Virus record (IMG/VR): IMGVR_UViG_2687453108_000014
DNA: 26,313 bases
Source of the DNA: a virus
Lineage: Duplodnaviria; Heunggongvirae; Uroviricota; Caudoviricetes
Strand: one strand, 5' to 3'
How positions within the stretch are numbered: the stretch's first letter is position 1; the number at the start of each line of letters is the position of its first letter. The notes under the pieces were generated by a model. The model saw only the letters and a program-made list of their open reading frames with translations. It made no database searches and was not told the origin of the DNA. Made by a program: the position numbers and the translations under genes. Shown here in pieces: positions 8,389 to 23,573 of this stretch.

Positions 8389-10207
8389 TTAAACAGGATA
8401 AAAACCAGAGCTTCCATTCTTATTTAAGTTATGGATTTTATTTGCATCATTAATTTTTATTTGGAACGTCGGACCTTTATTCTCAAGAATTACAATCTGG
8501 AAATTATAGTCCCTTTTGATTAATGCGTGATAAAATGAATCACTGAGACTGACGCTATTAACATCCGATAGAGAACCCCCTCTATCTTTATCAAAGTGCG
8601 TCACTAATGGACTATCAAGCACAACAAATCCAATGAATGGATTCCCTTTTCTTGATAAAAATTCCGCAAAGCAAATGGTAAATATAGCATGCATTACTGC
8701 ACGGGTACCTTTACCAAACATTCCTCGGCGTTTCCCATTGATATTAAAGTCATATGTATCTTCGTCAAATCGCACTTTGTTATCTTTAGAATTTTCAAAA
8801 TTTATATCATTCAAAAAGTCTTGCATCGCTATTTCTATATCATACAAATCAGCTACTGTTAAGGAGTCAAAGTCCTCGGCGGAGTATTTAAGTTCGTCAA
8901 CATCATCTTCTTTATCTTGTAATGAAGATAGAATGCTATGTTTTGTGTGATCCATTAAAAGATTGTCTTTATATTCATAAAGTGATTCAAGAGATGAATG
9001 TATTGTTTTATATTTTTATCTTCTAACGTCTTAAAATCACTTTTTTCTGATTGATAAATTTCATTAACATCATTTTTTCTTAACATAATTAATTCATGTT
9101 CGCGAACATTAGATCCGATTGATTCAATTAATCCTTTCAGCTGGCTTTTGATTTTCAATTTTTCTGCATTACACGACAAAAAACAATCATCATATGATAT
9201 TTCATTTTCTTTTTTTGCGGTGTATTACAGAACTCACAATAAATATCTGCAAAATTATTTAAATAGAAATTCGCCTGTGATACAACATCTATTCTTTGTA
9301 GATCTATAAAGTATTGGTCTTTAAGAAGACTAAATCTTTCAATGAGTAATGATAAGTATTTTTCCCTGTCACTGATTGAATATAATTCATCACTTAACTC
9401 TTTTAATAATTGCTTCTTATCATCAAGTGCATCAACAATACCTTTCAATATATCTTTCGATGATTCAATATCTTGCTCTACTTTCTCAAGTTCTCTTGAA
9501 ACAATGACTTGATCATATTCAGGATAAATTAATTGCGCTTTCAATTCCTCATAAATATTTGCAATTTGATTTTTTTAAAAATATCTTGCTTTTTTATTTG
9601 GTTTTTCTGCTAAGGAGTTAGTATCATCTCTCTGAGTTAAAAGGAATTTAAATTCAGACTTTCTTTTTGTCTCCTCGCTAGGAATATCAGAAAGAATTAA
9701 CGACTTCTCAGTTAACACTCTTAATTCATCAATACAAAAAAATTCAAAAACATTATTAAGATTAAATTTATGAAGAGTATTACTTAAGTTTGTTCTTACT
9801 TTAGCCTCTTTGAAATTCAACCTACCATAAAAGTATGATGAAAAACTCTTTTTAGACGAAGCACTTTTGGAAAAAACCATCAACAGATTAGCTTCACTAA
9901 CATTTTCAATACTCGAATCATATAATCTGTAATGGGCGCTATCCTGAAGAGACCTCTCAATTGTCATTACCCTACCTTGAAAATTAAATTCCAGATAGGC
10001 TAAATCATAACCTTGAGCATGATCGATATCTTTATTTTTTAGTTTTTCACTCCCTAATAAATATCGAATCAAATAATATATGTATGTTTTTCCAGAGTCA
10101 GAACCACCATATAAAATAGTCAATTTAGAACCAAATTCAATTATAGCATCTAATTTATTGAATCCGGTTACCTTTATTTTTCTGAACGTAAAAAAATTGT
10201 CATTCAT
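8389..10207 (-). pseudogene. SMC/ABC-like ATPase (component 3), split into four ORF fragments by one in-frame TAA and at least one frameshift
   Basis: N-terminal fragment has an SMC-type Walker A (FRKIKVTGFNKLDAIIEFGSKLTILYGGSDSGKT); the middle is coiled-coil-like; the last fragment has a Walker-B-like FVVLDSP. Fragments 9578-10207 and 9155-9574 are in the same frame separated by TAA at 9575-9577. Fragments 2 and 3 use TTG starts. Confidence 0.5.
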
Positions 10208-10658
10208 AATTAAATTCCATATCATATTTGCCAATTTTATTTTTTATAATTGATTGCAACTGCTCATCAGGAATATCACTATATAACTTAACCACCAAAT
10301 TTATATTATGCTCCATCTGCGCAACATATTCATTATGTAGAGAATTTGTAAATGCATATGTTTTTTCAGAAGCTTTATATACAAAACCACGATGTGTATA
10401 AATTTTTGAGGCTAGTTCATAGCCTTGCAACAAAGCCAATGATTCTAAAACAATCTCTCGTTTTAGGGCTAACTGAGCATCTCTACGGGGTATTGGAGGA
10501 TGAAGACTAATCTCTTCAGGTAAAAAATCCTTAAGATTTACTAAAATAAAATCAAAACAAATAAGCCGTTCAAGGCTTAATGAAGAAGGATAAATAGCGA
10601 CGAGCACTTTCGCCATTCGACATGCCACTTCTAAACTTGAATTATAAATTCTAACCAT
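10200..10658 (-). CDS. Small protein (component 2), about 152 aa from the internal ATG
   Basis: ATG at 10656-10658 overlaps the upstream stop (TAATG) and its own stop overlaps the ATPase start (ATGAATGA); no recognisable motif. Confidence 0.5.
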   Translation of the reverse strand: MVRIYNSSLEVACRMAKVLVAIYPSSLSLERLICFDFILVNLKDFLPEEISLHPPIPRRDAQLALKREIVLESLALLQGYELASKIYTHRGFVYKASEKTYAFTNSLHNEYVAQMEHNINLVVKLYSDIPDEQLQSIIKNKIGKYDMEFNYE

Positions 10659-11275
10659 TATCTCACCGTCCAAATTACTTCACCATCATTAACCAAATGA
10701 TGGCATATTCCTTTTTTATCATTTGCTTCACATATTTTTGATAGTACTGAATGTGCAATTGGTGTCAGAACAGCCTGCTTCAAGACTGCATTACACCTAA
10801 TAAATGCATAATTATGGTCTTCATAAAAGACGGGTTCAATTGAAGATGAAATGTAACATTTCAATGCTTTGAATACATCATCTTTAAATACTTCGCGGAC
10901 AAAAACCTCAAGCGAAGATGCAAAATAAAAATCATTTCTACTATTATTAAAGTGTCGTCTGTATGGATCATCAAGCTCTAAGAAAGAACTATAAGTTTTA
11001 TTTCCATGCTCTGAATAGGCTTGAAGCAGTGCATTAACATATACAGACTCTTTTTTTGAATTGTATGTTGGAATTTCATTTGGAGGGATTCTCACGACAT
11101 ACAGCTCGTTAAAGTACTTAAAATAAAGGTGTGTATTTGCAATATCATTTAAAATCAATGATAAGGGTAGAGAGTAAAAAATACTAAAATCAAAATCCTC
11201 AATATATTTTTTTATTTCATCATCTAATGGAATATCAATCTTTTTAGTTATTTTTTTGAAATTGCTGAATCCCAT
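10658..11275 (-). CDS. Hypothetical protein, probably the C-terminal part of the upstream nuclease-like gene
   Basis: Overlaps the upstream ORF by 28 nt in another frame exactly at an A7 run (11251-11257); its own RBS is weak; a 1-nt change in the run would fuse the two into about 340 aa. Confidence 0.45.
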   Translation of the reverse strand: MGFSNFKKITKKIDIPLDDEIKKYIEDFDFSIFYSLPLSLILNDIANTHLYFKYFNELYVVRIPPNEIPTYNSKKESVYVNALLQAYSEHGNKTYSSFLELDDPYRRHFNNSRNDFYFASSLEVFVREVFKDDVFKALKCYISSSIEPVFYEDHNYAFIRCNAVLKQAVLTPIAHSVLSKICEANDKKGICHHLVNDGEVIWTVR

Positions 11276-11664
11276 GAATCAAGGACTGCTTTTTTAAGCT
11301 CGTTTTTATTTTTCAATAAATTAGAAAATGTAGTAGATAAATCATAGGGTGCCACAAAAAAGTACTTCTGAGGGATGGGATAATCACCATTCAGAGTAAA
11401 ATAGATAAGTTTTCCAAACTCAACTACAACATCAGAGAACCCTAAACTTTTTTTGTACAGTTTGCATTGATAATTATCCCAAGAATAACCTTCTACGTTA
11501 GGATCCGATTTATATCCAACAACGTCTCTACCTTTATCTCCAGCTCCTCCCAAACGTTCGCTCCACGGGTAATCATCTGATTTACAGACAATAAGCCAAT
11601 CATGGACAAATACCTCCCATTGTTCATCATCCCATGTCAATATTTCCGAAAGTGGTTGAGACAC
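11248..11664 (-). CDS. PD-(D/E)xK (Mrr/Cap4-like) nuclease-domain protein (component 1, N-terminal part)
   Basis: ERLGGAGDKGRDVVGY ... NYQCKLYKK resembles the G-x-GD-x-G-x-D ... QxK catalytic core of Mrr-type nucleases; GTG start 7 nt after AAGGAG, directly downstream of the integrase stop. Confidence 0.5.
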   Translation of the reverse strand: MSQPLSEILTWDDEQWEVFVHDWLIVCKSDDYPWSERLGGAGDKGRDVVGYKSDPNVEGYSWDNYQCKLYKKSLGFSDVVVEFGKLIYFTLNGDYPIPQKYFFVAPYDLSTTFSNLLKNKNELKKAVLDSWDSAISKK

Positions 11665-13504: not shown

Positions 13505-13558
13505 TGAACCGCCCCGGAAATCCTGGAGACTAAACTCCCTGAGAAAGAGGTAAACAGG

Positions 13559-13885
13559 ATGACTAAAAATACTCGTTTTTCCCCCGAAGTCCGTCAGCGG
13601 GCGATTCGTATGGTTCTGGAAAGTCAGGATGAATATGACTCACAGTGGGCGGCAATTTGTTCCATTGCCCCAAAGATTGGCTGTACGCCGGAGACTCTGC
13701 GTGTCTGGGTTCGCCAGCATGAGCGGGATACCGGGGGCGGTGATGGTGGGCTCACCAGCGCTGAACGTCAGCGTCTGAAAGAGCTGGAACGTGAAAATCG
13801 TGAACTGCGCCGCAGTAACGATATCCTTCGCCAGGCTTCCGCTTATTTTGCGAAGGCGGAGTTCGACCGCCTCTGGAAAAAATGA
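13559..13885 (+). CDS. IS629-like OrfA (HTH)
   Basis: [23 protein letters not shown]... with leucine-zipper-like C-terminus, typical of IS3-family OrfA. Confidence 0.85.
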
Positions 13886-14772
13886 TGCCACTGCTGGATA
13901 AGCTGCGTGAGCAGTACGGGGTCGGACCGGTATGCAGCGAACTGCATATTGCCCCGTCAACGTATTACCATTGTCAGCAACAGCGACATCATCCGGATAA
14001 ACGCAGTGCCCGTGCGCAGCACGACGACTGGCTGAAGAGAGAGATACAGCGCGTATACGATGAAAATCATCAGGTGTACGGTGTGCGTAAAGTCTGGCGT
14101 CAGTTGTTACGGGAAGGAATCAGGGTGGCCAGATGTACAGTGGCACGTCTCATGGCGGTTATGGGACTTGCCGGTGTTCTCCGGGGTAAAAAGGTCCGTA
14201 CGACCATCAGCCGGAAAGCCGTTGCCGCAGGCGACCGCGTAAACCGTCAGTTCGTGGCAGAACGACCTGACCAGCTGTGGGTGGCTGATTTTACTTACGT
14301 CAGCACATGGCAGGGCTTCGTCTATGTGGCGTTTATCATTGATGTGTTTGCCGGATACATCGTGGGGTGGCGGGTCTCATCGTCTATGGAAACGACATTC
14401 GTGCTGGATGCGCTGGAGCAGGCGTTGTGGGCCCGTCGTCCGTCTGGCACCATCCATCACAGCGATAAAGGCTCTCAGTATGTGTCACTGGCCTATACGG
14501 AGCGACTAAAAGAAGCCGGATTACTGGCATCAACAGGGAGTACAGGCGACTCGTATGACAACGCGATGGCTGAGAGCATCAATGGTCTTTACAAAGCGGA
14601 GGTAATACACCGTAAGAGCTGGAAAAACCGTGCAGAAGTGGAACTGGCCACACTAACGTGGGTGGACTGGTATAACAATCGACGATTGCTGGGAAGGCTG
14701 GGCCATACTCCTCCGGCAGAAGCAGAAAAAGCTTATTATGCTTCCATCGGAAACGATGATCTGGCAGCCTGA
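13882..14772 (+). CDS. IS629-like OrfB (DDE transposase)
   Basis: DDE-type catalytic region (...WVADFTYV..., ...HHSDKGSQY..., ...DNAMAES...); overlaps orfA as expected for programmed -1 frameshifting. Confidence 0.85.
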
Positions 14773-14817
14773 GTTCACAGATAAAACACTCTCCAGGAAA
14801 CCCGGGGCGGTTCAGAG

Positions 14818-15083
14818 CGCATGAAACACGGCAGTTCGCCAGAGAGTTGAATCTGGAGCCCTGCACAACGGCAATCAGCAGTCCTCAGAGTAATGGAATT
14901 GCAGAAAGGTTCGTGAAAACGATGAAGGAAGACTACATCGCGTTCATGCCGAAACCGAATGTAAGAACGGCATTGCATAATCTTGCAGTGGCGATCGAAC
15001 ATTACAATGAAAACCATCCGCACAGTGCGTTGGGTTATCGCTCTCCGCGAGAATATCGACGTCAGCGGGTAACGTTAACTTAA
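14818..15083 (+). pseudogene. IS2-family transposase remnant, downstream part (C-terminus)
   Basis: ...[36 protein letters not shown]...[14 protein letters not shown]... continues the frame of 13339-13504 once the IS and one GAG copy are removed. Confidence 0.55.
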
Positions 15084-15124
15084 GATACCCCCCCTGTCTG
15101 GAAATAAGGGGGCAAGAACAATGA

Positions 15125-15868
15125 TCAGATTCCCTGGTGAGTAAGAATTTTACTTTCTGAACTCCTCTGAGAGTATTGACTTGGAGAAACACCAAAATAA
15201 CGTCTAAATACATAAGTAAAGTATGAGACACTGGCATAACCACAGACCTTAGCTACTTTACTAATAGGATAACAACGAGTGCTGAGTAAATATTCAGCCA
15301 TTTGCATCCTCTCATCAAGTATGATCTTACTGAATGATACCCCCTCTTCTTTCAATTTCCTCTTTAGTAAACTTTCGCTGAGATATAATCTTGATGATAT
15401 ATCCTTAAGACGCCATGGTGCAGATAAATCCGTATGAATAATCGTTTTAACTTTAGCCCCTGTGCTTTTCAAACATCCAAACAGAAATACTCCAAATTGT
15501 TTTTCAGAAGAAAATGCAGAGAGACATGTAAAAGCAATAGACTCATCAAAAATTTCTATGTATTCAGCACAGTGATTAGCCCAACTAATTAATCCTTTAA
15601 TTAAACTGAAGTCAGCAAAGTTTATTTTTAAATAAGATGGATATTCCCTACAATCAGAAATATCCCTTAAGTTATTAGCTTTCAAATAGCGACTAATAAA
15701 CTCAGCGCCAAAATCCGCCACTATCACTCTTTCAGGATATGTCAGGAAAAAATCTCTAGAGCTAGAGTCGACAAGTACAGATGAACCTCTCTCCAGAAAC
15801 ACACTCTCTTTTCCGAAATAAACATCAAAGGACTCCAAAATCAATATAACTGAACATGTAGTTGCCAT
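15125..15868 (-). CDS. AraC/XylS-family transcriptional regulator, AppY-like
   Basis: C-terminal double HTH (WRLKDISSRLYLSESLLKRKLKEEGVSFSKIILDERMQMAEYLL...VCGYASVSYFTYVFRRYFGVSPSQY); overall layout resembles prophage-borne AppY-type regulators; gene is AT-rich. Confidence 0.8.
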   Translation of the reverse strand: MATTCSVILILESFDVYFGKESVFLERGSSVLVDSSSRDFFLTYPERVIVADFGAEFISRYLKANNLRDISDCREYPSYLKINFADFSLIKGLISWANHCAEYIEIFDESIAFTCLSAFSSEKQFGVFLFGCLKSTGAKVKTIIHTDLSAPWRLKDISSRLYLSESLLKRKLKEEGVSFSKIILDERMQMAEYLLSTRCYPISKVAKVCGYASVSYFTYVFRRYFGVSPSQYSQRSSESKILTHQGI

Positions 15869-16450
15869 ATCATCCCCCCAATTTAACTGAAACCAGGATG
15901 AAGTATATGTATATAAAGTTCACTTTGCCAAACTTCAGTATAAAAAACCACTAAAAATAGGGTGTGATAAAAAATACCGTAACAATAAAGCAAAGGATTA
16001 TAAATTCCGTTACAGTTACAAATGATACTCAAGAAACAATTCCTTAGGAAAAACTTATTTACAGCCAATAAGTAAGACACTTATATGATATCAAGTTTTC
16101 ATAAAACATAACTAGGCTAAATAGCTGCGCCTAATACCGCTACACTTTTGCCAGCCCATGTTTGCCTCCGGGTATTGACCCCTTCTCTACGCAACTTCAG
16201 TTCCCACCACCAACTTTGCGGCAGCTTTGTAGGATCAATGTCTAAAAGAATAATGGTGACCGATAAGAAAACGACTGAATAACTGCAGATTTTCGCTCAA
16301 AACCTTCCTGTCAGATCCATAGCGAATCAAGTGCTGAATGTCACAGTATCGAACAGAAAACAGTGACGATCTAACCCTTCAAGAATATTCTACGATTGTT
16401 CTGTTTAGGAAAAGCAAGACGGGAAGTCGGGAGATAAGTCATTGATAAAG

Positions 16451-16512
16451 TGGCGGAGAGAGGGGGATTTGAACCCCCGGTAGAGTTGCCCCTACTCCGG
16501 TTTTCGAGACCG
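16451..16512 (-). other. 62-bp 3' fragment of a tRNA-Ser(CGA) gene (serU-like), att-type remnant
   Basis: Reverse complement reads CGGTCTCGAAAACCGGAGTAGGGGCAACTCTACCGGGGGTTCAAATCCCCCTCTCTCCGCCA: anticodon arm with CGA, long variable arm, T-arm and acceptor 3' end; the 5' half is absent. Confidence 0.7.
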
Positions 16513-16595
16513 ACCCGATCATCAAACGAAACATAAAATTAGCTCACATTATGAGGAAAGGTATCTTTTTGCGCTATGTAAATTCAAAGGGTTAG

Positions 16596-17465
<870 letters not shown>

Positions 17466-17522
17466 ATCTTCAAGTGGTAAGCATAAACCGCAGCACGATC
17501 TTGCATACGACGTGCTACGGTT

Positions 17523-18077
17523 TCATTTATCTCCGGCCGGAAACTTCTTATACAGTGTCGATACACCAACATCATAGATGATCGCTACCTTCTGGCGAGG
17601 AATTCCTGCTGCAATTAATCGTCCGGCCTGCGCCCATTGTTCTGGTGTAAGTTTGGGACGACGTCCACCAATTCGTCCCTGTGCGCGAGCAGCTTCCAGT
17701 CCAGCTTTTGTTCGTTCAACAATCAGTTCTCGTTCCATTTCAGCCAGGGCCCCCATCACATGAAAGAAAAAGCGCCCCATTGGGGTACTGGTATCAATAG
17801 CATCCGTCAGGCTGCGAAAATTAACGCCACGTTCGCGCAACTCCTCAACCAGAATGACCAGATGCCGCATACTGCGCCCCAGCCGATCCAGTTTCCAGAC
17901 AACCAGAGTGTCACCTGCCGATAATGTCCTGAGCAGTTTTTTCAGTCCCGGCCTTTCGGACTTTGTACCGCTTATCTTGTCTTCAAAAATCAGCTCGCAT
18001 CCTGCACAGTTCAGCGCATTACGTTGTAGATCTGTGTTCTGGTCATTTGTTGACACACGTACATAGCCAATAAGCAT
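17523..18077 (-). CDS. pin: Pin/Gin/Hin-family serine DNA invertase
   Basis: MLIGYVRVSTNDQNTDLQ... with catalytic Ser and C-terminal HTH; lies next to a hix/gix-like site and an invertible segment. Confidence 0.9.
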   Translation of the reverse strand: MLIGYVRVSTNDQNTDLQRNALNCAGCELIFEDKISGTKSERPGLKKLLRTLSAGDTLVVWKLDRLGRSMRHLVILVEELRERGVNFRSLTDAIDTSTPMGRFFFHVMGALAEMERELIVERTKAGLEAARAQGRIGGRRPKLTPEQWAQAGRLIAAGIPRQKVAIIYDVGVSTLYKKFPAGDK

Positions 18078-18141
18078 GGTAGATCTCCCTGACAAAAGCA
18101 GGAATGATGCCATTTGCTCGTTATTTCTGCATTTTCATAAA

Positions 18142-18167
18142 CGTTGGTTTGGGAGAAGGTGCTCCAG
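18142..18167. repeat. Invertase crossover site 1 (hix/gix-like, 26 bp)
   Basis: Reverse complement TTCTCCCAAACCAACGTTTATGAAAA resembles hix/gix sites and matches 19971-19996 in inverted orientation over TTCTCCCAAACCAA-GTTT. Confidence 0.7.
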
Positions 18168-18388
18168 CTATTGGCGTTCCGTTTCTGGCCGTCCGCTGCA
18201 ATGCCAATACTGTAATCGACAGCTGGTCCTGTATGGTGTTTTTGAAGTTCAACGGCGCGAAATTCTCTGCCACTGATTATCCTGTGCTGGCGAAAGTGTT
18301 TCCTTCGCTGGTATTACCTGAAGCCGCGGTGATTTCATTCGTATCTGGGATGACGGGCGAGGTGCAGACGGTGGTCGCGAATTATTAA
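18168..18388 (+). other. Promoterless alternative tail-fibre C-terminal segment (Sv')
   Basis: Frame runs on from the crossover site: ...GAPAIGVPFLAVRCNANTV...KFNGAKFSATDYPVLAKVFPSLVLPEA..., a tail-fibre-like motif. Confidence 0.45.
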
Positions 18389-18594
18389 GCTGGCAGGCAG
18401 CTACAACTTTCTCAGTTTGCCGGGAATATAGGCGAAGGTGCGGGACACGCAATTAACTTTCATGATGGCATCGCCGGAAATCAGCCAGGATTTTCACGAT
18501 TTAATTTCACCAGTAACTCTGTGGGTGATGGTGTGAATTTTGTTGCAGTCAGACCGCGAAATATTGCATTTAACTTTCTGGTGAGGGCTAAATA

Positions 18595-19185
18595 ATGAAC
18601 CTGTTTTTGATGAAAATGGGCTGGCTACAGTGCCGGGCGATATGCGTTGTTTTTATTATGATGCTGAAACATCTGAGTATACGGCTGGTCTGATGAATAT
18701 ATTAATACTGGCGTAAGTATGCCCGCCTGTTCCACTGGTATTGACCCTGGCGAAAACATTCCGGGAAGAGTGGCAGTATTTACAGGTAAGGGATGGAGCC
18801 ATGAAGAAGACCATCGCAATGAGACTGTTTACTCAATCGAAAATGGCGCAGCTGTTACAGTGGATTATATCGGTGCCATCAAAGACGGTTATGTCACGAT
18901 TTCACCGTTAACGCCATACGATAAATGGGATGGTGAGAAATGGGTGACAGACACTGAGGCACAACACAGTGCCGCAGTAGACGCGGCAGAAGCACAGCGC
19001 CAATCACTGATTGATGCAGCAATGGCTTCCATTAGTCTGATTCAGCTGAAGTTACAGGCCGGACGGAAACTGACTCAGGCAGAACAACCCGACTTAACGC
19101 CGTGCTGGATTACATTGACGCGGTGACGGCAACAGATACCAGCACCGCGCCGGATGTCATCTGGCCTGAACTGCCGGAGGCGTAG
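18595..19185 (+). pseudogene. Tail fibre assembly gene (tfa'), frameshifted
   Basis: Tfa-like middle region (TPYDKWDGEKWVTDTEAQ...) in one frame, conserved C-terminus (LNAVLDYIDAVTATDTSTAPDVIWPELPEA) in another; the N-terminus after ATG 18595 is in a third. Confidence 0.55.
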
Positions 19186-19586
19186 GCCATTCAATATCTG
19201 GCGCACCGGAAGTATCGACCAGCTCCAGTGCGTCCAGATAATCCAGCCACAATTATATTGCGTCAGTTCGTCACCTTTCAGACGACCAATAGCCGCTTTA
19301 CCGGGCCATTGCTTACTGTTCATGTATTCGTTGGCCTGGTTAATTAGTAGCTGTCTTTCTGATTCAGTAATTTCAATAAGCTCTTCATGCGTGGGTGGAG
19401 GAATATCTGCCACGCAGGCAGCCCATCATCTCCGGCAATACGGATTTTCCTTGTGGCGGTTCAGCCATAAACTCACTGATAATATTTTGATTTACTTCCT
19501 TAGCGTCTGATAAATCCCATCCCTCTGATTTATATTTATCAATCATATCCACAGGGAAAAAGCATTATGCCTTGCGCTATAAACAT
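19157..19586 (-). pseudogene. Tail fibre assembly gene (tfa), multiply frameshifted
   Basis: Starts MDEYVYSARHNAF then stops; DIPPPTHEELIEITESERQLL... and the conserved C-terminus WLDYLDALELVDTSGAPDIEWPTPPAVQAR are each in different frames; 3' end overlaps tfa' antisense. Confidence 0.55.
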
Positions 19587-19616
19587 ATTCGTCCATATAA
19601 ATCACCCTGAATAAAA

Positions 19617-20339
19617 TTACTCACCAACAGCCCACCAACTGTAATTCATCGATACCGTGTCGCTGGTTGATGACGTTCTGTAAGCAGAATTAAAGCCGGT
19701 TAACGTTGGGCCTTCTGCAGTCATCACGAACCCTCGCCCAGCGCCTAAAGGCGCACCGCCATCACCAGAATGAGTAAGCATGGCGCAGTCCGCTTTTTGG
19801 GGAAAGGGATGCTGAATGTAATTCTCATTGTTGCGTCGATAATGTCGGCGTAACCGCACCACGACCATATTGCAGGATTTTCCCGTTGGTAATTTCATCC
19901 ATCCATTACCACTGGCAAAGAGGCCATGTCCGGTATCTGATTTTCCCCTGTCCCACATCCCGTTTGCCGCTTCTCCCAAACCAAGGTTTTGAAGAGCCGT
20001 TTTCACCGTGCCGTCCGATTTGATATCGCCAAACGGATTCTTGCGGCTCAGGTATTCAACAGCAAACCCCGATCCCAGCAATTCAACAAAACCGGGCAGA
20101 TCACCATTATCAAGCACATCCCGTTGCGTTTTATCACTTACAAACTGGGCCAGAGCTGCAGCAATAAAGCTGGCCTGCCGAATAACCTTATTGACTTGCG
20201 CACTGGATGCTTTCCCTGCTGTAAATCCGGATATAAGCGCAGGCAACGCTTCCCATTCCTCCTGCGACATAACATTGGCATTTCGATCAGTTGCAAACGC
20301 TTTAAAGTCATTTTTCGCCATCAGAGTAATACTCCCCAT
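19617..20339 (-). CDS. Side tail fibre protein (e14 Stf-like); C-terminal third lies inside the invertible segment
   Basis: ORF just upstream of tfa containing crossover site 2 (19971-19996) in frame. Confidence 0.6.
19971..19996. repeat. Invertase crossover site 2 (hix/gix-like, 26 bp) inside stf
   Basis: TTCTCCCAAACCAAGGTTTTGAAGAG, inverted relative to site 1. Confidence 0.7.
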
Positions 20340-20632
20340 GCCCCTACATCAAAACCACTGATGAATTCGTTATCCATATCAAAACCAAAAAATTTAGAGC
20401 CTTCCGATGGAGTTTCCACCGAAGGTGTTTCAATGCCCCCCGCCCATACCCCGGCGGCTTTTACTGTTAGATACCCCTGTTTAATTGCCGCAATTAACTC
20501 ACGCGATACATCTGAAATATCAGTATCAGGAAAGACCCAGACCGATATCGTCATGTCCTGGTTATCGATGTTGGCGATCCGACGCATCTGCTCACGGTCA
20601 AAGTTAACCATCTGTGCGGCGATGTTTTTCAT
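20321..20632 (-). pseudogene. Deletion fusion: lambda P codons 1-21 joined to the 3' end of a tail/baseplate gene
   Basis: First 21 residues (MKNIAAQMVNFDREQMRRIAN) match lambda P; downstream sequence is unrelated and ends overlapping the stf start, as the last gene before a tail fibre would. Confidence 0.65.
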
Positions 20633-21528
20633 AAATCCACCCCGTAAATCCAGTCAGTGTTTGTCAGGTCGAGTTTTGGTTTGCTGGCTGTCACGCCTGC
20701 CTGTTGCTTGTTACGGTTGATTTCGAGCTGGGTCCACTTGTCGCGGAGTTTGGCCGGACTCAGCACGTTACCGGACCAGAAGTTGTCCTGGCAGGCCCAG
20801 CGGAAAAGCACACACATATCGCGGTGGTTACGTCCGTCACGTTCACGCATCAGGCGGATATCGTTAGCCCACCCAGCAAAATTCGGTTTTCTGGCTGATG
20901 GCGCGATGGTCTTCACCATGTCAAACATCCACTCTGCGGCGGTCAGGTCTTCTGCTGTTCCCCACTTGCTGCCGCTCTGAATTGCAGCATCCGGTTTAAC
21001 CACAGAAAGATCGTTTTCTGGCTGGTCAGAGGATTCGCCAGAATTCTCGGACGAATAATCTTTTCTTTTTTCTTTTGTAATAGTGTCTTTTGTGTCCCCC
21101 TGTTTTGAGGGATAGCAATCCCCCAATTTGAGGGATGTTTTATCCCTCGTTTTAGGGGATTTTCCCTCGTTTTGAGGGATACACCATTCTGAGATGTTTT
21201 TATTTGGTCCAAACATGCCGCCTTGCTGCTTGATAATATTCATTCTGACGAGTTCTAACTTGGCTTCATTGCACCGTTTGACAGGTAACTTTGTAATCTC
21301 GCTAAGTTGAGAATCGGTGATTCTGTCCATTGGTTTATTCCACCCATAGGTTTTACGCAGAATGGCAAGCAGCACTTTAAACTGTCGCTTGGTCAGATCT
21401 GCGCCCGAATAAGCCTCAAGCAGCATATTTGATAGTCTGGCGTAACCATCATCGAGATCTGCCACATTACGCTCCTGTCCGGCAAAGTTACCTCTGCCGA
21501 AGTTGAGTATTTTTGCTGTATTTGTCAT
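20629..21528 (-). CDS. O: Lambda-type replication initiator O
   Basis: 299 aa, matches what I recall of lambda O; contains the ori iterons. Confidence 0.93.
   Translation of the reverse strand: MTNTAKILNFGRGNFAGQERNVADLDDGYARLSNMLLEAYSGADLTKRQFKVLLAILRKTYGWNKPMDRITDSQLSEITKLPVKRCNEAKLELVRMNIIKQQGGMFGPNKNISEWCIPQNEGKSPKTRDKTSLKLGDCYPSKQGDTKDTITKEKRKDYSSENSGESSDQPENDLSVVKPDAAIQSGSKWGTAEDLTAAEWMFDMVKTIAPSARKPNFAGWANDIRLMRERDGRNHRDMCVLFRWACQDNFWSGNVLSPAKLRDKWTQLEINRNKQQAGVTASKPKLDLTNTDWIYGVDL
21060..21185. repeat. ori-lambda: four ~19-bp iterons plus adjacent AT-rich region inside O
   Basis: Repeated ...CCCTC(A/G)AAA(C/T)(G/A)AGGGA... units at about 21096-21183, with a T-rich tract at 21060-21095. 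Confidence 0.8.
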
Positions 21529-21560
21529 AATGACTCCTGTTGATAGATCCAGTAATGACC

Positions 21561-21854
21561 TCAGAACTCCATCTGGATTTGTTCAGAACGCTCGGTTGCC
21601 GCCGGGCGTTTTTTATTGGTGAGAATCGCAGCAACTTGTCGCGCCAATCGAGCCATGTCGTCGTCAACGACCCCCCATTCAAGAACAGCAAGCAGCATTG
21701 AGAACTTTGGAATCCAGTCTCTCTTCCACCTGCTGATCTGCGACTTATCAACTCCCACAGCTTCCGCTGTCTTCTCAGTTCCAAGCATTGCGATTTTGTT
21801 AAGCAACGCACTCTCGATTCGTAGAGCCTCGTTGCGTTTGTTTGCACGAACCAT
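21561..21854 (-). CDS. cII: Lambda cII transcriptional activator
   Basis: 97 aa from MVRANKRNEALRIESALLNKIAMLGTEKTAEAVGVDKSQISRWKRDWIPKF...; the ORF track's longer N-terminal extension is discarded. Confidence 0.93.
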   Translation of the reverse strand: MVRANKRNEALRIESALLNKIAMLGTEKTAEAVGVDKSQISRWKRDWIPKFSMLLAVLEWGVVDDDMARLARQVAAILTNKKRPAATERSEQIQMEF

Positions 21855-21972
21855 ATGTAAGTATTTCCTTAGATAACAATTGATTGAATGTATGCAAATA
21901 AATGCATACACCATAGGTGTGGTTTAATTGGATGCCCTTTTTCAGGGCTGGAATGTGTAAGAGCGGGGTTAT

Positions 21973-22182
<210 letters not shown>

Positions 22183-22195
22183 TTAGTACATGCAA

Positions 22196-22266
22196 CCATT
22201 ATCACCGCCAGAGGTAAAGCAGTCAACACGCGCGGTGTTAGATATTTATCCCTTGCGGTGATAGAT
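22196..22266. promoter_or_regulatory. OR1-OR2-OR3 with divergent PR and PRM promoters
   Basis: OR1 TATCACCGCCAGAGGTA (22200-22216), OR2 CAACACGCGCGGTGTTA (22224-22240), OR3 TATCCCTTGCGGTGATA (22247-22263); OR2 differs from my recalled lambda sequence by one central base. Confidence 0.85.
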
Positions 22267-22270
22267 TTAA

Positions 22271-22987
<717 letters not shown>

Positions 22988-23114
22988 TAGGAAGTAAGTT
23001 TTATGTTGACGGCACAGTCAACTTGGCATAGATTAATTAAACCAAGCCCAGCCCCGTTCGCAGACAATTGTTAATATCTGCATAACGGCTCTGGGCTATT
23101 TTTTTGGGACTCTT

Positions 23115-23573
23115 ATGAAGAAAGCAGCAATTTTAATTGATGCGGGTTTTTTCATGCAGCGTGTTCATGCTACGCATCGTAAACACTTCGCCGAGCATGA
23201 ACTGACTGCGCAATGCATAATGAAAGTAATATGGTCAATGGTTCTTTCCCATCTTAATGGAAAACGTCAATCACAAGAACGTAGGGAACCGCTTGAGCTT
23301 TATAGAATTTACTTCTATGACTGTCCACCACTCGACATTCAAACACGCCTTCCACTTCCTGAGCCTGGCAATAAGACGCCTGGTCGCAAGAATTTCAAAC
23401 TCGAAAAATCATATATTCTGAGAACGGAGCTGCATGAAGAGTTAAGAAAAACTCGAAAAACAGCCAATTGTATTTATTTTAAAATTAATAGGTGCAACTC
23501 ACTAAACAACGCAATTCTGATCTCTCGATCACCTCCCAAGCCACACAACCCTGCAAAAAATAAATCTATATAA
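23115..23573 (+). CDS. Hypothetical protein in the slot lambda uses for rexA/rexB; N-terminus NYN/PIN-like
   Basis: ORF between cI and OL, co-directional with cI; begins MKKAAILIDAGFF...; the 3' end runs into lambda-like sequence upstream of OL3, so it may be a truncated remnant. Confidence 0.4.
   Translation: MKKAAILIDAGFFMQRVHATHRKHFAEHELTAQCIMKVIWSMVLSHLNGKRQSQERREPLELYRIYFYDCPPLDIQTRLPLPEPGNKTPGRKNFKLEKSYILRTELHEELRKTRKTANCIYFKINRCNSLNNAILISRSPPKPHNPAKNKSI

Follow-up and report, generated by a model that had tools for sequence, protein, structure and literature searches.

The tail-fibre inversion switch of the remnant prophage Sp1 is currently active in the E. coli O157:H7 lineage. We studied this switch in a stretch of viral DNA of 26,313 nucleotides (the window). 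Our preferred reading, to which we give a probability of about 0.87, is that it is the Pin inversion cassette of Sp1, still active, and that 19 bases lacking from the window sequence are PacBio consensus errors arising from mixed orientations. An earlier note on this DNA had described a Pin-controlled invertible tail-fibre switch, and an intact Pin, crossover sites of the e14 type and the occurrence of both orientations bear that description out. The same note had regarded the two tail-fibre assembly (tfa) genes as decayed. This part did not survive: the apparent "decay" almost certainly reflects errors of a long-read assembly that arose from the flipping.

To identify the source of the window, we used 5.1 kb around the cassette in a sequence search, which returned a 100% match to E. 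coli O157:H7 strain JEONG-1266; many other O157:H7 genomes match the same 5.1 kb at 99.2-99.6%. The annotation of strain Sakai names this region "prophage Sp1, lambda-like phage" (10,586 bp) and places it at thrW, beside proA and abutting the P4-like element Sp2. From thrW toward lower window coordinates, Sp1 carries an integrase remnant and lambda-type cI, cro, cII, and O, followed by a P/DUF2612 stub, the tail-fibre cassette, pin, PD-T4-3 (a GIY-YIG protein), and an AraC-family regulator. Neither annotation nor Pfam revealed head, tail, or baseplate genes in the 10.6-kb Sp1 beyond the cassette; hence, Sp1 cannot build a particle, which upholds the earlier view that the switch serves no infective virion. 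In this respect, Sp1 departs from a host-range switch, where the fibre is encoded within a virion-building genome. The cassette adjoins the PD-T4-3 defence gene and lies downstream of a lambda-type pR operon.

The stub (20321..20632, reverse strand) is a deletion scar, recognized with Pfam, in which about 20 first codons of a lambda-type P lead straight into what is left of a DUF2612 tail protein, its C-terminus. The DUF2612 match covers positions 135-177 of 181 (E = 6e-4, under the curated cut-off), and intact DUF2612 genes lie under the corresponding flank in other E. coli. As a result of the scar, stf-tfa follows immediately after cro-cII-O in the same direction, with the O stop overlapping the start of the stub and the stub stop overlapping the start of stf. 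The whole series (cro, cII, O, the stub, stf, and tfa) lies on one strand downstream of a lambda-pR-like promoter, TTGACT-17-GATAAT, found at 22226-22198 in a promoter scan. This pR-like promoter set apart, the scan of 17400-22400 for promoters and terminators gave hits no more numerous than in shuffled sequence. Judged from this arrangement, stf-tfa may plausibly be expressed upon CI derepression.

As the earlier note had proposed, two inverted 26-bp sites delimit the invertible segment. A repeat finder returned inverted arms at 18139-18158 and 19970-19989 (20 nt, 95% complementary). Site 1, proximal to pin, occupies 18132..18157 (TTTTCATAAACGTTGGTTTGGGAGAA; central dinucleotide at 18144-18145), and site 2, inside stf, occupies 19971..19996 (TTCTCCCAAACCAAGGTTTTGAAGAG; central dinucleotide at 19983-19984). 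The segment end given earlier, 19996, was exact; the start, 18142, had been placed inside site 1. The half-site TTCTCCCAAACC and the central AA/TT are common to both sites, and a 19-nt core of the sites is present in exactly two copies in the window versus 0.01 expected by chance. Two inverted 26-bp sites, each with imperfect 12-bp half-sites and the same 2-bp core, are a feature of the invertase family. An alignment with known invertase sites, a comparison set beforehand, showed site 1 to be identical to the pin-proximal e14 site at 26 of 26 positions and site 2 to differ from the distal e14 site at 2 of 26. The e14 16-mer TTGGTTTGGGAGAAGG quoted by Kirigo et al. (PMC12529663) is also matched exactly within site 1. 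The sites enclose two tail-fibre tips and a convergent pair of tfa genes, whose 3' ends overlap by 29 bp on opposite strands, as had been noted. In strains with an intact copy, the segment is 1,858 bp long; in the assembly of the window, it measures 1,839 bp.

The adjacent gene, pin (17523..18077, reverse strand), encodes a serine DNA invertase of 184 aa, assigned by Pfam, by structure match, and by identity to PinE; it is intact, as previously stated. Its protein has the architecture of the Hin/Gin/Cin/Pin (Din) serine-invertase family, an N-terminal catalytic domain with a serine at position 9/10 and a C-terminal helix-turn-helix (Pfam Resolvase, E = 8e-52; HTH_7, E = 1e-15). Residues 1-181 match the Gin structures 3UJ3/4M6F (E = 5e-94), the catalytic serine (Ser9) is present in the motif VRVSTNDQ, and 178 of 184 residues (97%) are identical to K-12 PinE. 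The RefSeq protein (WP_000904979.1) is common to all O157 strains whose annotation was examined. In the Hin, Gin, and Cin systems, a Fis-dependent enhancer lies within the 5' part of the invertase gene. A need for Fis and for negative supercoiling is a biochemical trait of the family. By analogy, we place a candidate enhancer region at pin nucleotides +20 to +170 (17907..18057, reverse strand), a stretch that is identical to e14 pinE at 147 of 150 nt; the 3' half of pin is less conserved. A strict 15-nt Fis consensus pattern matched once in pin (GTGCAGGATGCGAGC, centred 144 bp from the crossover centre) and gave no second Fis site in the pin region.

Translated in a common frame, set by the central dinucleotide, each crossover site encodes N-(L/V)-G-L-G-E, and inversion swaps the fibre tips in frame, as the earlier note had proposed. 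In intact relatives, the complete fibre is 236 aa in the window orientation and 264 aa when flipped. The constant N-terminal part of ~117 aa (19997..20321, reverse strand) ends in ...LQNLGLGE and is identical in the two fibres; its junction motif is shared with e14 StfP. Tip A (19617..19970, reverse strand), joined to the constant part in the window orientation, carries a Gp53-like C-terminal domain (Pfam Gp53-like_C, E = 6e-12 for the intact 236-aa fibre) and lacks 6 bases in the window (19793-19962). Tip B (18158..18594, forward strand) is not joined to a full-length fibre here and also lacks 6 bases (two at 18182, one each at 18205 and 18323, and two at 18406). In Sakai, tip B and the constant part together make the 264-aa fibre ECs_0280.

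Each tip has its own tfa gene. That of tip B (18595..19185, forward strand) is TfaE-like, encodes 197 aa when intact, and lacks 3 bases (18597, 18682, and 19082); the intact product, which strains 3-5-1 and 9000 carry as WP_000805544.1, matches Pfam Caudo_TAP (E = 2e-27). That of tip A (19157..19596, reverse strand) is YfdK-like, encodes 147 aa when intact, and lacks 4 bases (19250, 19409, 19444, and 19556); its intact product, WP_000344820.1, matches the same family (E = 3e-30). Intact strains therefore possess the hallmark of a host-range switch in which two C-termini, each with an assembly gene, can be joined in frame to one N-terminus.

A short pin-proximal ORF starts outside the segment (18107..18131, forward strand; MPFARYFCIFINVGLGE...) and reads across site 1 into the tip that is unjoined to the full-length fibre. 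From the ATG at 18107, intact strains encode 164 aa in orientation A, that of the window, or 136 aa in orientation B (ECs_0283 in Sakai). The leader of this ORF is kept in e14 stfE. An outside start and a small tip protein that depends on inversion are features of recombinase-activated phage inhibition.

From these parts and by homology, we propose the following mechanism. Dimers of Pin would occupy the two inverted 26-bp sites, and the invertasome would be assembled by an enhancer that lies in the 5' part of pin and is bound by Fis. Cleavage and strand exchange at the central AA/TT would then invert the segment, such that either tip, followed by its own tfa chaperone gene, would be joined in frame to the constant 117-aa N-terminus. 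We infer that Pin itself is the catalyst and that Fis and the enhancer are needed.

The earlier note had suggested that the switch may still flip. We found both orientations among complete genomes and within one culture. Our junction query (1,200 bp) combined 600 bp of the segment of strain 3-5-1 with 600 bp of Sp1-specific flank, i.e., the constant part of stf and the P/DUF2612 stub; a version flipped in silico was also queried. At a coverage of at least 80%, the junction in the window orientation was recovered from 89 complete E. coli genomes and the flipped junction from 155, a census that counts assemblies, not independent inversion events. The best 60 of the 155 flipped matches are 100% identical over the query, including the Sp1-specific flank, and among them are Sakai, EDL933, TW14359, and EC4115. 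Sakai and 3-5-1 carry segments that are exact reverse complements (1858/1858), and both sites are unchanged, as predicted for an exchange at the central dinucleotide.

Two further cases bear on the timing of inversion. The cattle isolates 109 and 110, each 5,442,850 bp, carry the same rare IS1203 insertion in the 197-aa tfa inside the segment; their flanks show 0 mismatches in 14,475 + 12,353 bp, and their segments of 3,172 bp are exact reverse complements of each other. In the AR-0428 assembly, the chromosome shows orientation B, and a 46.9-kb linear "plasmid" contig shows orientation A. This "plasmid" is a spurious duplicate of the chromosomal region and otherwise differs from it by indels only. 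Because both orientations were assembled, one culture of AR-0428 must have held both forms. Together, the 109/110 pair and AR-0428 point to current activity rather than one old event. Reversible and conservative inversion with exact junctions at the sites, which is the behaviour of the invertase family, is what these genomes display.

We then turned to the missing bases. Strains 3-5-1 and 9000 served as references for alignments of the window, and a further alignment took in 30 kb of 3-5-1. Across 8.65 kb of the window (14814-23466), there are 0 mismatches to 3-5-1, and 18 gap openings account for 19 bases. These openings are confined to 18182-19962, strictly between the crossover sites, and the chance of all of them falling in this 7% of the window is ~1.6e-21, uniform placement being assumed. 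The other ~17.7 kb of the window differ from 3-5-1 by 8 mismatches and 1 gap. Taken together, the 24 kb outside the segment contain no more than one indel. Counted event by event against 3-5-1, there are 17 events in the segment, all of them losses in the window, with 0 insertions and 0 substitutions. Fifteen of the 17 are single-base contractions of 3-6-base homopolymers; the remaining two each removed a pair of bases, at TTCTTC and AAACTTTT.

The frameshifts that had been reported in both tfa genes are indeed present in the window sequence, and they are not restricted to these genes: all four ORFs of the segment are affected (tip B has lost 6 bases, the 197-aa tfa 3, the 147-aa tfa 4, and tip A 6). 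The stf ORF is still open and looks intact because its 6 lost bases are a multiple of three. Aligned with the intact protein, it has ~60 codons scrambled. In a search with a 5,101-base query, no other record was 100% identical to the window, and the next-best matches span at least 5,120 bases. Apart from the IS1203 insertion in 109 and 110, annotation gives all four ORFs as intact in 3-5-1, 9000, Sakai, AR-0428, 109, and 110, and the 19-base losses are absent from all six of these strains, whether the comparison was made base by base or through annotation. The JEONG-1266 genome comes from PacBio reads alone, put together with FALCON at 101x.

These observations point to an assembly artefact rather than decay, with 17 deletion events, no substitutions, and every event in the segment. 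A precedent exists in E. coli EC958, where 2 substitutions and 20 indels were clustered in a 2.8-kb invertible tail-fibre segment and spurious contigs were also produced (PMC4134206). The cause in EC958 was that about half of the reads were in the other orientation (Forde et al. 2014, PMC4134206). We suggest that a mixed orientation of the JEONG-1266 culture likewise caused the consensus errors in the window.

The stf and tfa frameshifts might instead have accumulated in the JEONG-1266 lineage as genuine pseudogenization, because the cassette no longer serves a phage. Sp1 without other virion genes fits such a history, as selection for virion function is not expected, and true decay of the cassette does occur elsewhere, where IS1203 disrupts the 197-aa tfa in 109 and 110. 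Decay of this kind is hard to reconcile with a series of deletions that includes neither insertions nor substitutions, that consists almost wholly of homopolymer contractions, and that stops exactly at the crossover sites within 8.6 kb otherwise identical to 3-5-1. It is equally at odds with the privacy of the changes, with ORFs that are intact in six other strains, and with a PacBio-only assembly for which EC958 offers a parallel (PMC4134206). We therefore rejected true tfa decay on the difference pattern and the sequencing method, and regard pseudogenization as highly improbable. The orientations in the databases could also reflect rare RecA-dependent recombination between the repeats, or an arbitrary choice by the assembler. 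Inverted repeats do recombine in principle, and nothing more specific speaks for this idea. Continuous identity between the arms extends over only ~14-20 bp, the junctions fall exactly on 26-bp sites that are identical to a characterized invertase site, and a flip that separates isolates with no other differences, and that occurs in a single culture, implies a high rate; moreover, an assembler reports solely those orientations that are present in the reads. The exact junctions and the otherwise identical isolates led us to discard both versions of this explanation, which we find scarcely credible.

Which invertase does the work is a separate matter. Other invertases of the genome could catalyse Sp1 inversion in trans, and in the strongest form of this alternative, the segment would flip mainly through another serine invertase (PinQ/PinR-like, from another O157 prophage), with the adjacent Pin playing a minor part. 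In K-12, inversion of the e14 P segment was reported to be stronger with PinQ and PinR than with PinE (PMC12529663), an EC958 prophage with a truncated invertase still inverts (PMC4134206), and our 5.1-kb query matched a single genome in as many as 12 places, meaning that related cassettes exist. Yet Pin is intact, adjacent to the segment, and 97% identical to PinE, and in the same e14 study overproduced PinE raised inversion to 49% and a pinE deletion was reported to lock the segment (PMC12529663). We consider a predominantly trans-acting invertase unlikely and retain Pin as the probable catalyst of an active Sp1 cassette.

By analogy with the e14 P segment, O157:H7 might keep the Sp1 cassette as a phase-variable anti-phage device, a proposal that we hold to be doubtful. 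The e14 chimeric protein StfE2 was reported to block T2 adsorption (Kirigo et al. 2025, PMC12529663); the short ORF of Sp1 corresponds to this system, and the Sp1 tips differ from the e14 tips. If the proposal were true, flipping would change which full-length and short tip proteins are formed and would generate subpopulations with masked phage receptors. An active switch in O157:H7 makes the phage-defence claim for tail-fibre inversion in cryptic prophages testable in a pathogen.

Systems of this kind, with their sites, are already established, and so is the sequencing artefact. Knowledge of Pin-type tail-fibre inversion goes back to the 1980s, and the Sp1 invertase is already annotated in the Sakai genome; hence, the biological addition is little. 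In the literature searched, we found no prior report of inversion specifically at Sp1 of O157. The practical lesson is that, where homopolymer frameshifts cluster in a long-read assembly and the cluster ends exactly at inverted repeats, the segment is actively flipping and its genes should not be taken as decayed. Artefacts of this origin stand in public "complete" genomes, as the pseudogene calls of JEONG-1266 and the spurious "plasmid" of AR-0428 illustrate.

Among known systems, the Sp1 cassette is, by sequence comparison, evidently a close relative of the e14 P-inversion system of K-12, with different tips and in a different remnant prophage. The two share the invertase (178/184), an identical site 1, and a site 2 that differs at 2/26 positions. 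They also share a layout (constant stf part, tip, tfa, convergent tfa, tip, and pin) and a short pin-proximal leader ORF, M(M)PFA.YF.IFINVGLGE. Both have a nuclease-type defence gene beyond pin, Sp1 having PD-T4-3 where e14 has mcrA, and both orientations are common in deposited genomes (e14: PMC12529663; Sp1: the genome census here). In contrast, the tips and tfa genes are largely unlike, with only patches at 89-93% identity, and the segment is 1,797 bp in e14 versus 1,858 bp in Sp1. The surroundings differ as well: Sp1 is a lambda-immunity remnant at thrW with its cassette behind O and the P stub, whereas the e14 cassette follows baseplate genes.

The classical inversion systems (Mu G/Gin, P1 C/Cin, and Salmonella H/Hin) have the same kind of small serine invertase, with Sp1 Pin matching Gin at the E value given above, and the same 26-bp site architecture, TTCTC..AAACC-NN-GGTTT..GAGAA. 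In Mu and P1, inversion swaps the tail-fibre C-termini together with their assembly genes. Both are complete phages in which the switch alters host range, and Hin switches a promoter, not a coding end. Sp1 differs from Mu and P1 in that a virion cannot be built from it. Phi1, Phi2, and Phi4 of EC958 (Forde et al. 2014, PMC4134206) have the same class of 26-bp site and segments of 2-3 kb, and they gave the same PacBio symptoms, namely a local cluster of indels, as in JEONG-1266, and spurious contigs in the alternative orientation, as in AR-0428. The EC958 prophages and tips are different ones, and the raw reads there held ~50% of each orientation, whereas we infer the mixture for the JEONG-1266 culture. 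Finally, the P2-like phage pro483 and related myoviruses match 55% of the cassette (invertase, fibre, and tfa) at 91% nucleotide identity. These are complete phage genomes, whereas Sp1 keeps the cassette alone, and the match indicates that the module comes from functional phages.

Disruption of the invertible tail-fibre cassette by the insertion sequence IS1203 is genuine in some O157 strains. In strains 109 and 110, the gene for the 197-aa tfa product is interrupted by a copy of IS1203 that lies inside the invertible segment (positions 15545-16758 of the strain 109 locus, L011, and 15366-16579 of the strain 110 locus, L010). The segment so enlarged, at 3,172 bp, still inverts, as a comparison of strain 109 with strain 110 shows. 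A flipped segment also occurs in strain AR-0428, in a linear 46.9-kb RefSeq record labeled "plasmid pAR-0428-2" (NZ_CP044147.1; L008). This record spuriously duplicates the fadE-proA-Sp1-Sp2 region of the chromosome; it differs from the chromosomal copy by 2 mismatches, which fall inside the flipped segment, and all other differences are indels. Outside the cassette, the window has an IS1203 copy between the P4-like element Sp2 and the remnant prophage Sp1 (window 13505-14814). In strain 3-5-1, an identical copy lies elsewhere, next to the gene that follows cI downstream (window ~23466), and hence the positions of the IS differ between closely related strains.

The cI, cro, and cII genes of Sp1 occupy window 21561-22987. 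Their proteins look identical or almost identical to their phage lambda counterparts; if this likeness is true, Sp1 has lambda-type immunity. The O gene in the window is an intact ORF of 299 aa with the ori iterons inside it (window 21097-21181). This iteron array is shorter in the window and in 3-5-1 than in strain 9000 by 23 bp, i.e., one iteron-length unit, and it is because of these 23 bp fewer that O is an intact 299-aa ORF in the window. In strains 9000 and Sakai, the O gene measures 923 bp versus 900 bp (+23 bp), and the annotation calls it frameshifted or a pseudogene. On the minus strand at window 20321-20632, codons 1 to ~20 of a lambda-type P gene are joined in frame to the coding sequence for the last ~80 residues of a tail protein of the DUF2612 family; DUF2612 genes are intact in other E. 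coli. This fusion ORF looks like the scar left by a deletion that took out the remainder of the prophage between the replication and the tail-fibre genes.

The Lamassu-type defence locus of Sp2 (window 8389-11664, minus strand) appears to be broken into pieces. LmuA is divided between two ORFs, which match model positions 10-140 and 141-333, and LmuB among three (3-199, 230-329, and 428-608); LmuC is unbroken. For the most part, the fragmentation is not peculiar to the window assembly, since strain 3-5-1 has identical protein accessions for the locus. The middle ORF is longer in strains 110 and AR-0428.

Directly beyond the invertase gene pin lies a gene for a GIY-YIG protein (window 16692-17465, plus strand) that matches the PADLOC model for PD-T4-3 over its full length (E 2e-140), making it a candidate single-gene anti-phage defence. 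In e14, the cryptic K-12 prophage with one of the closest known systems to the Sp1 cassette, it is the restriction gene mcrA that adjoins the invertase gene pinE, whereas Sp1 has the PD-T4-3 gene in the equivalent place.
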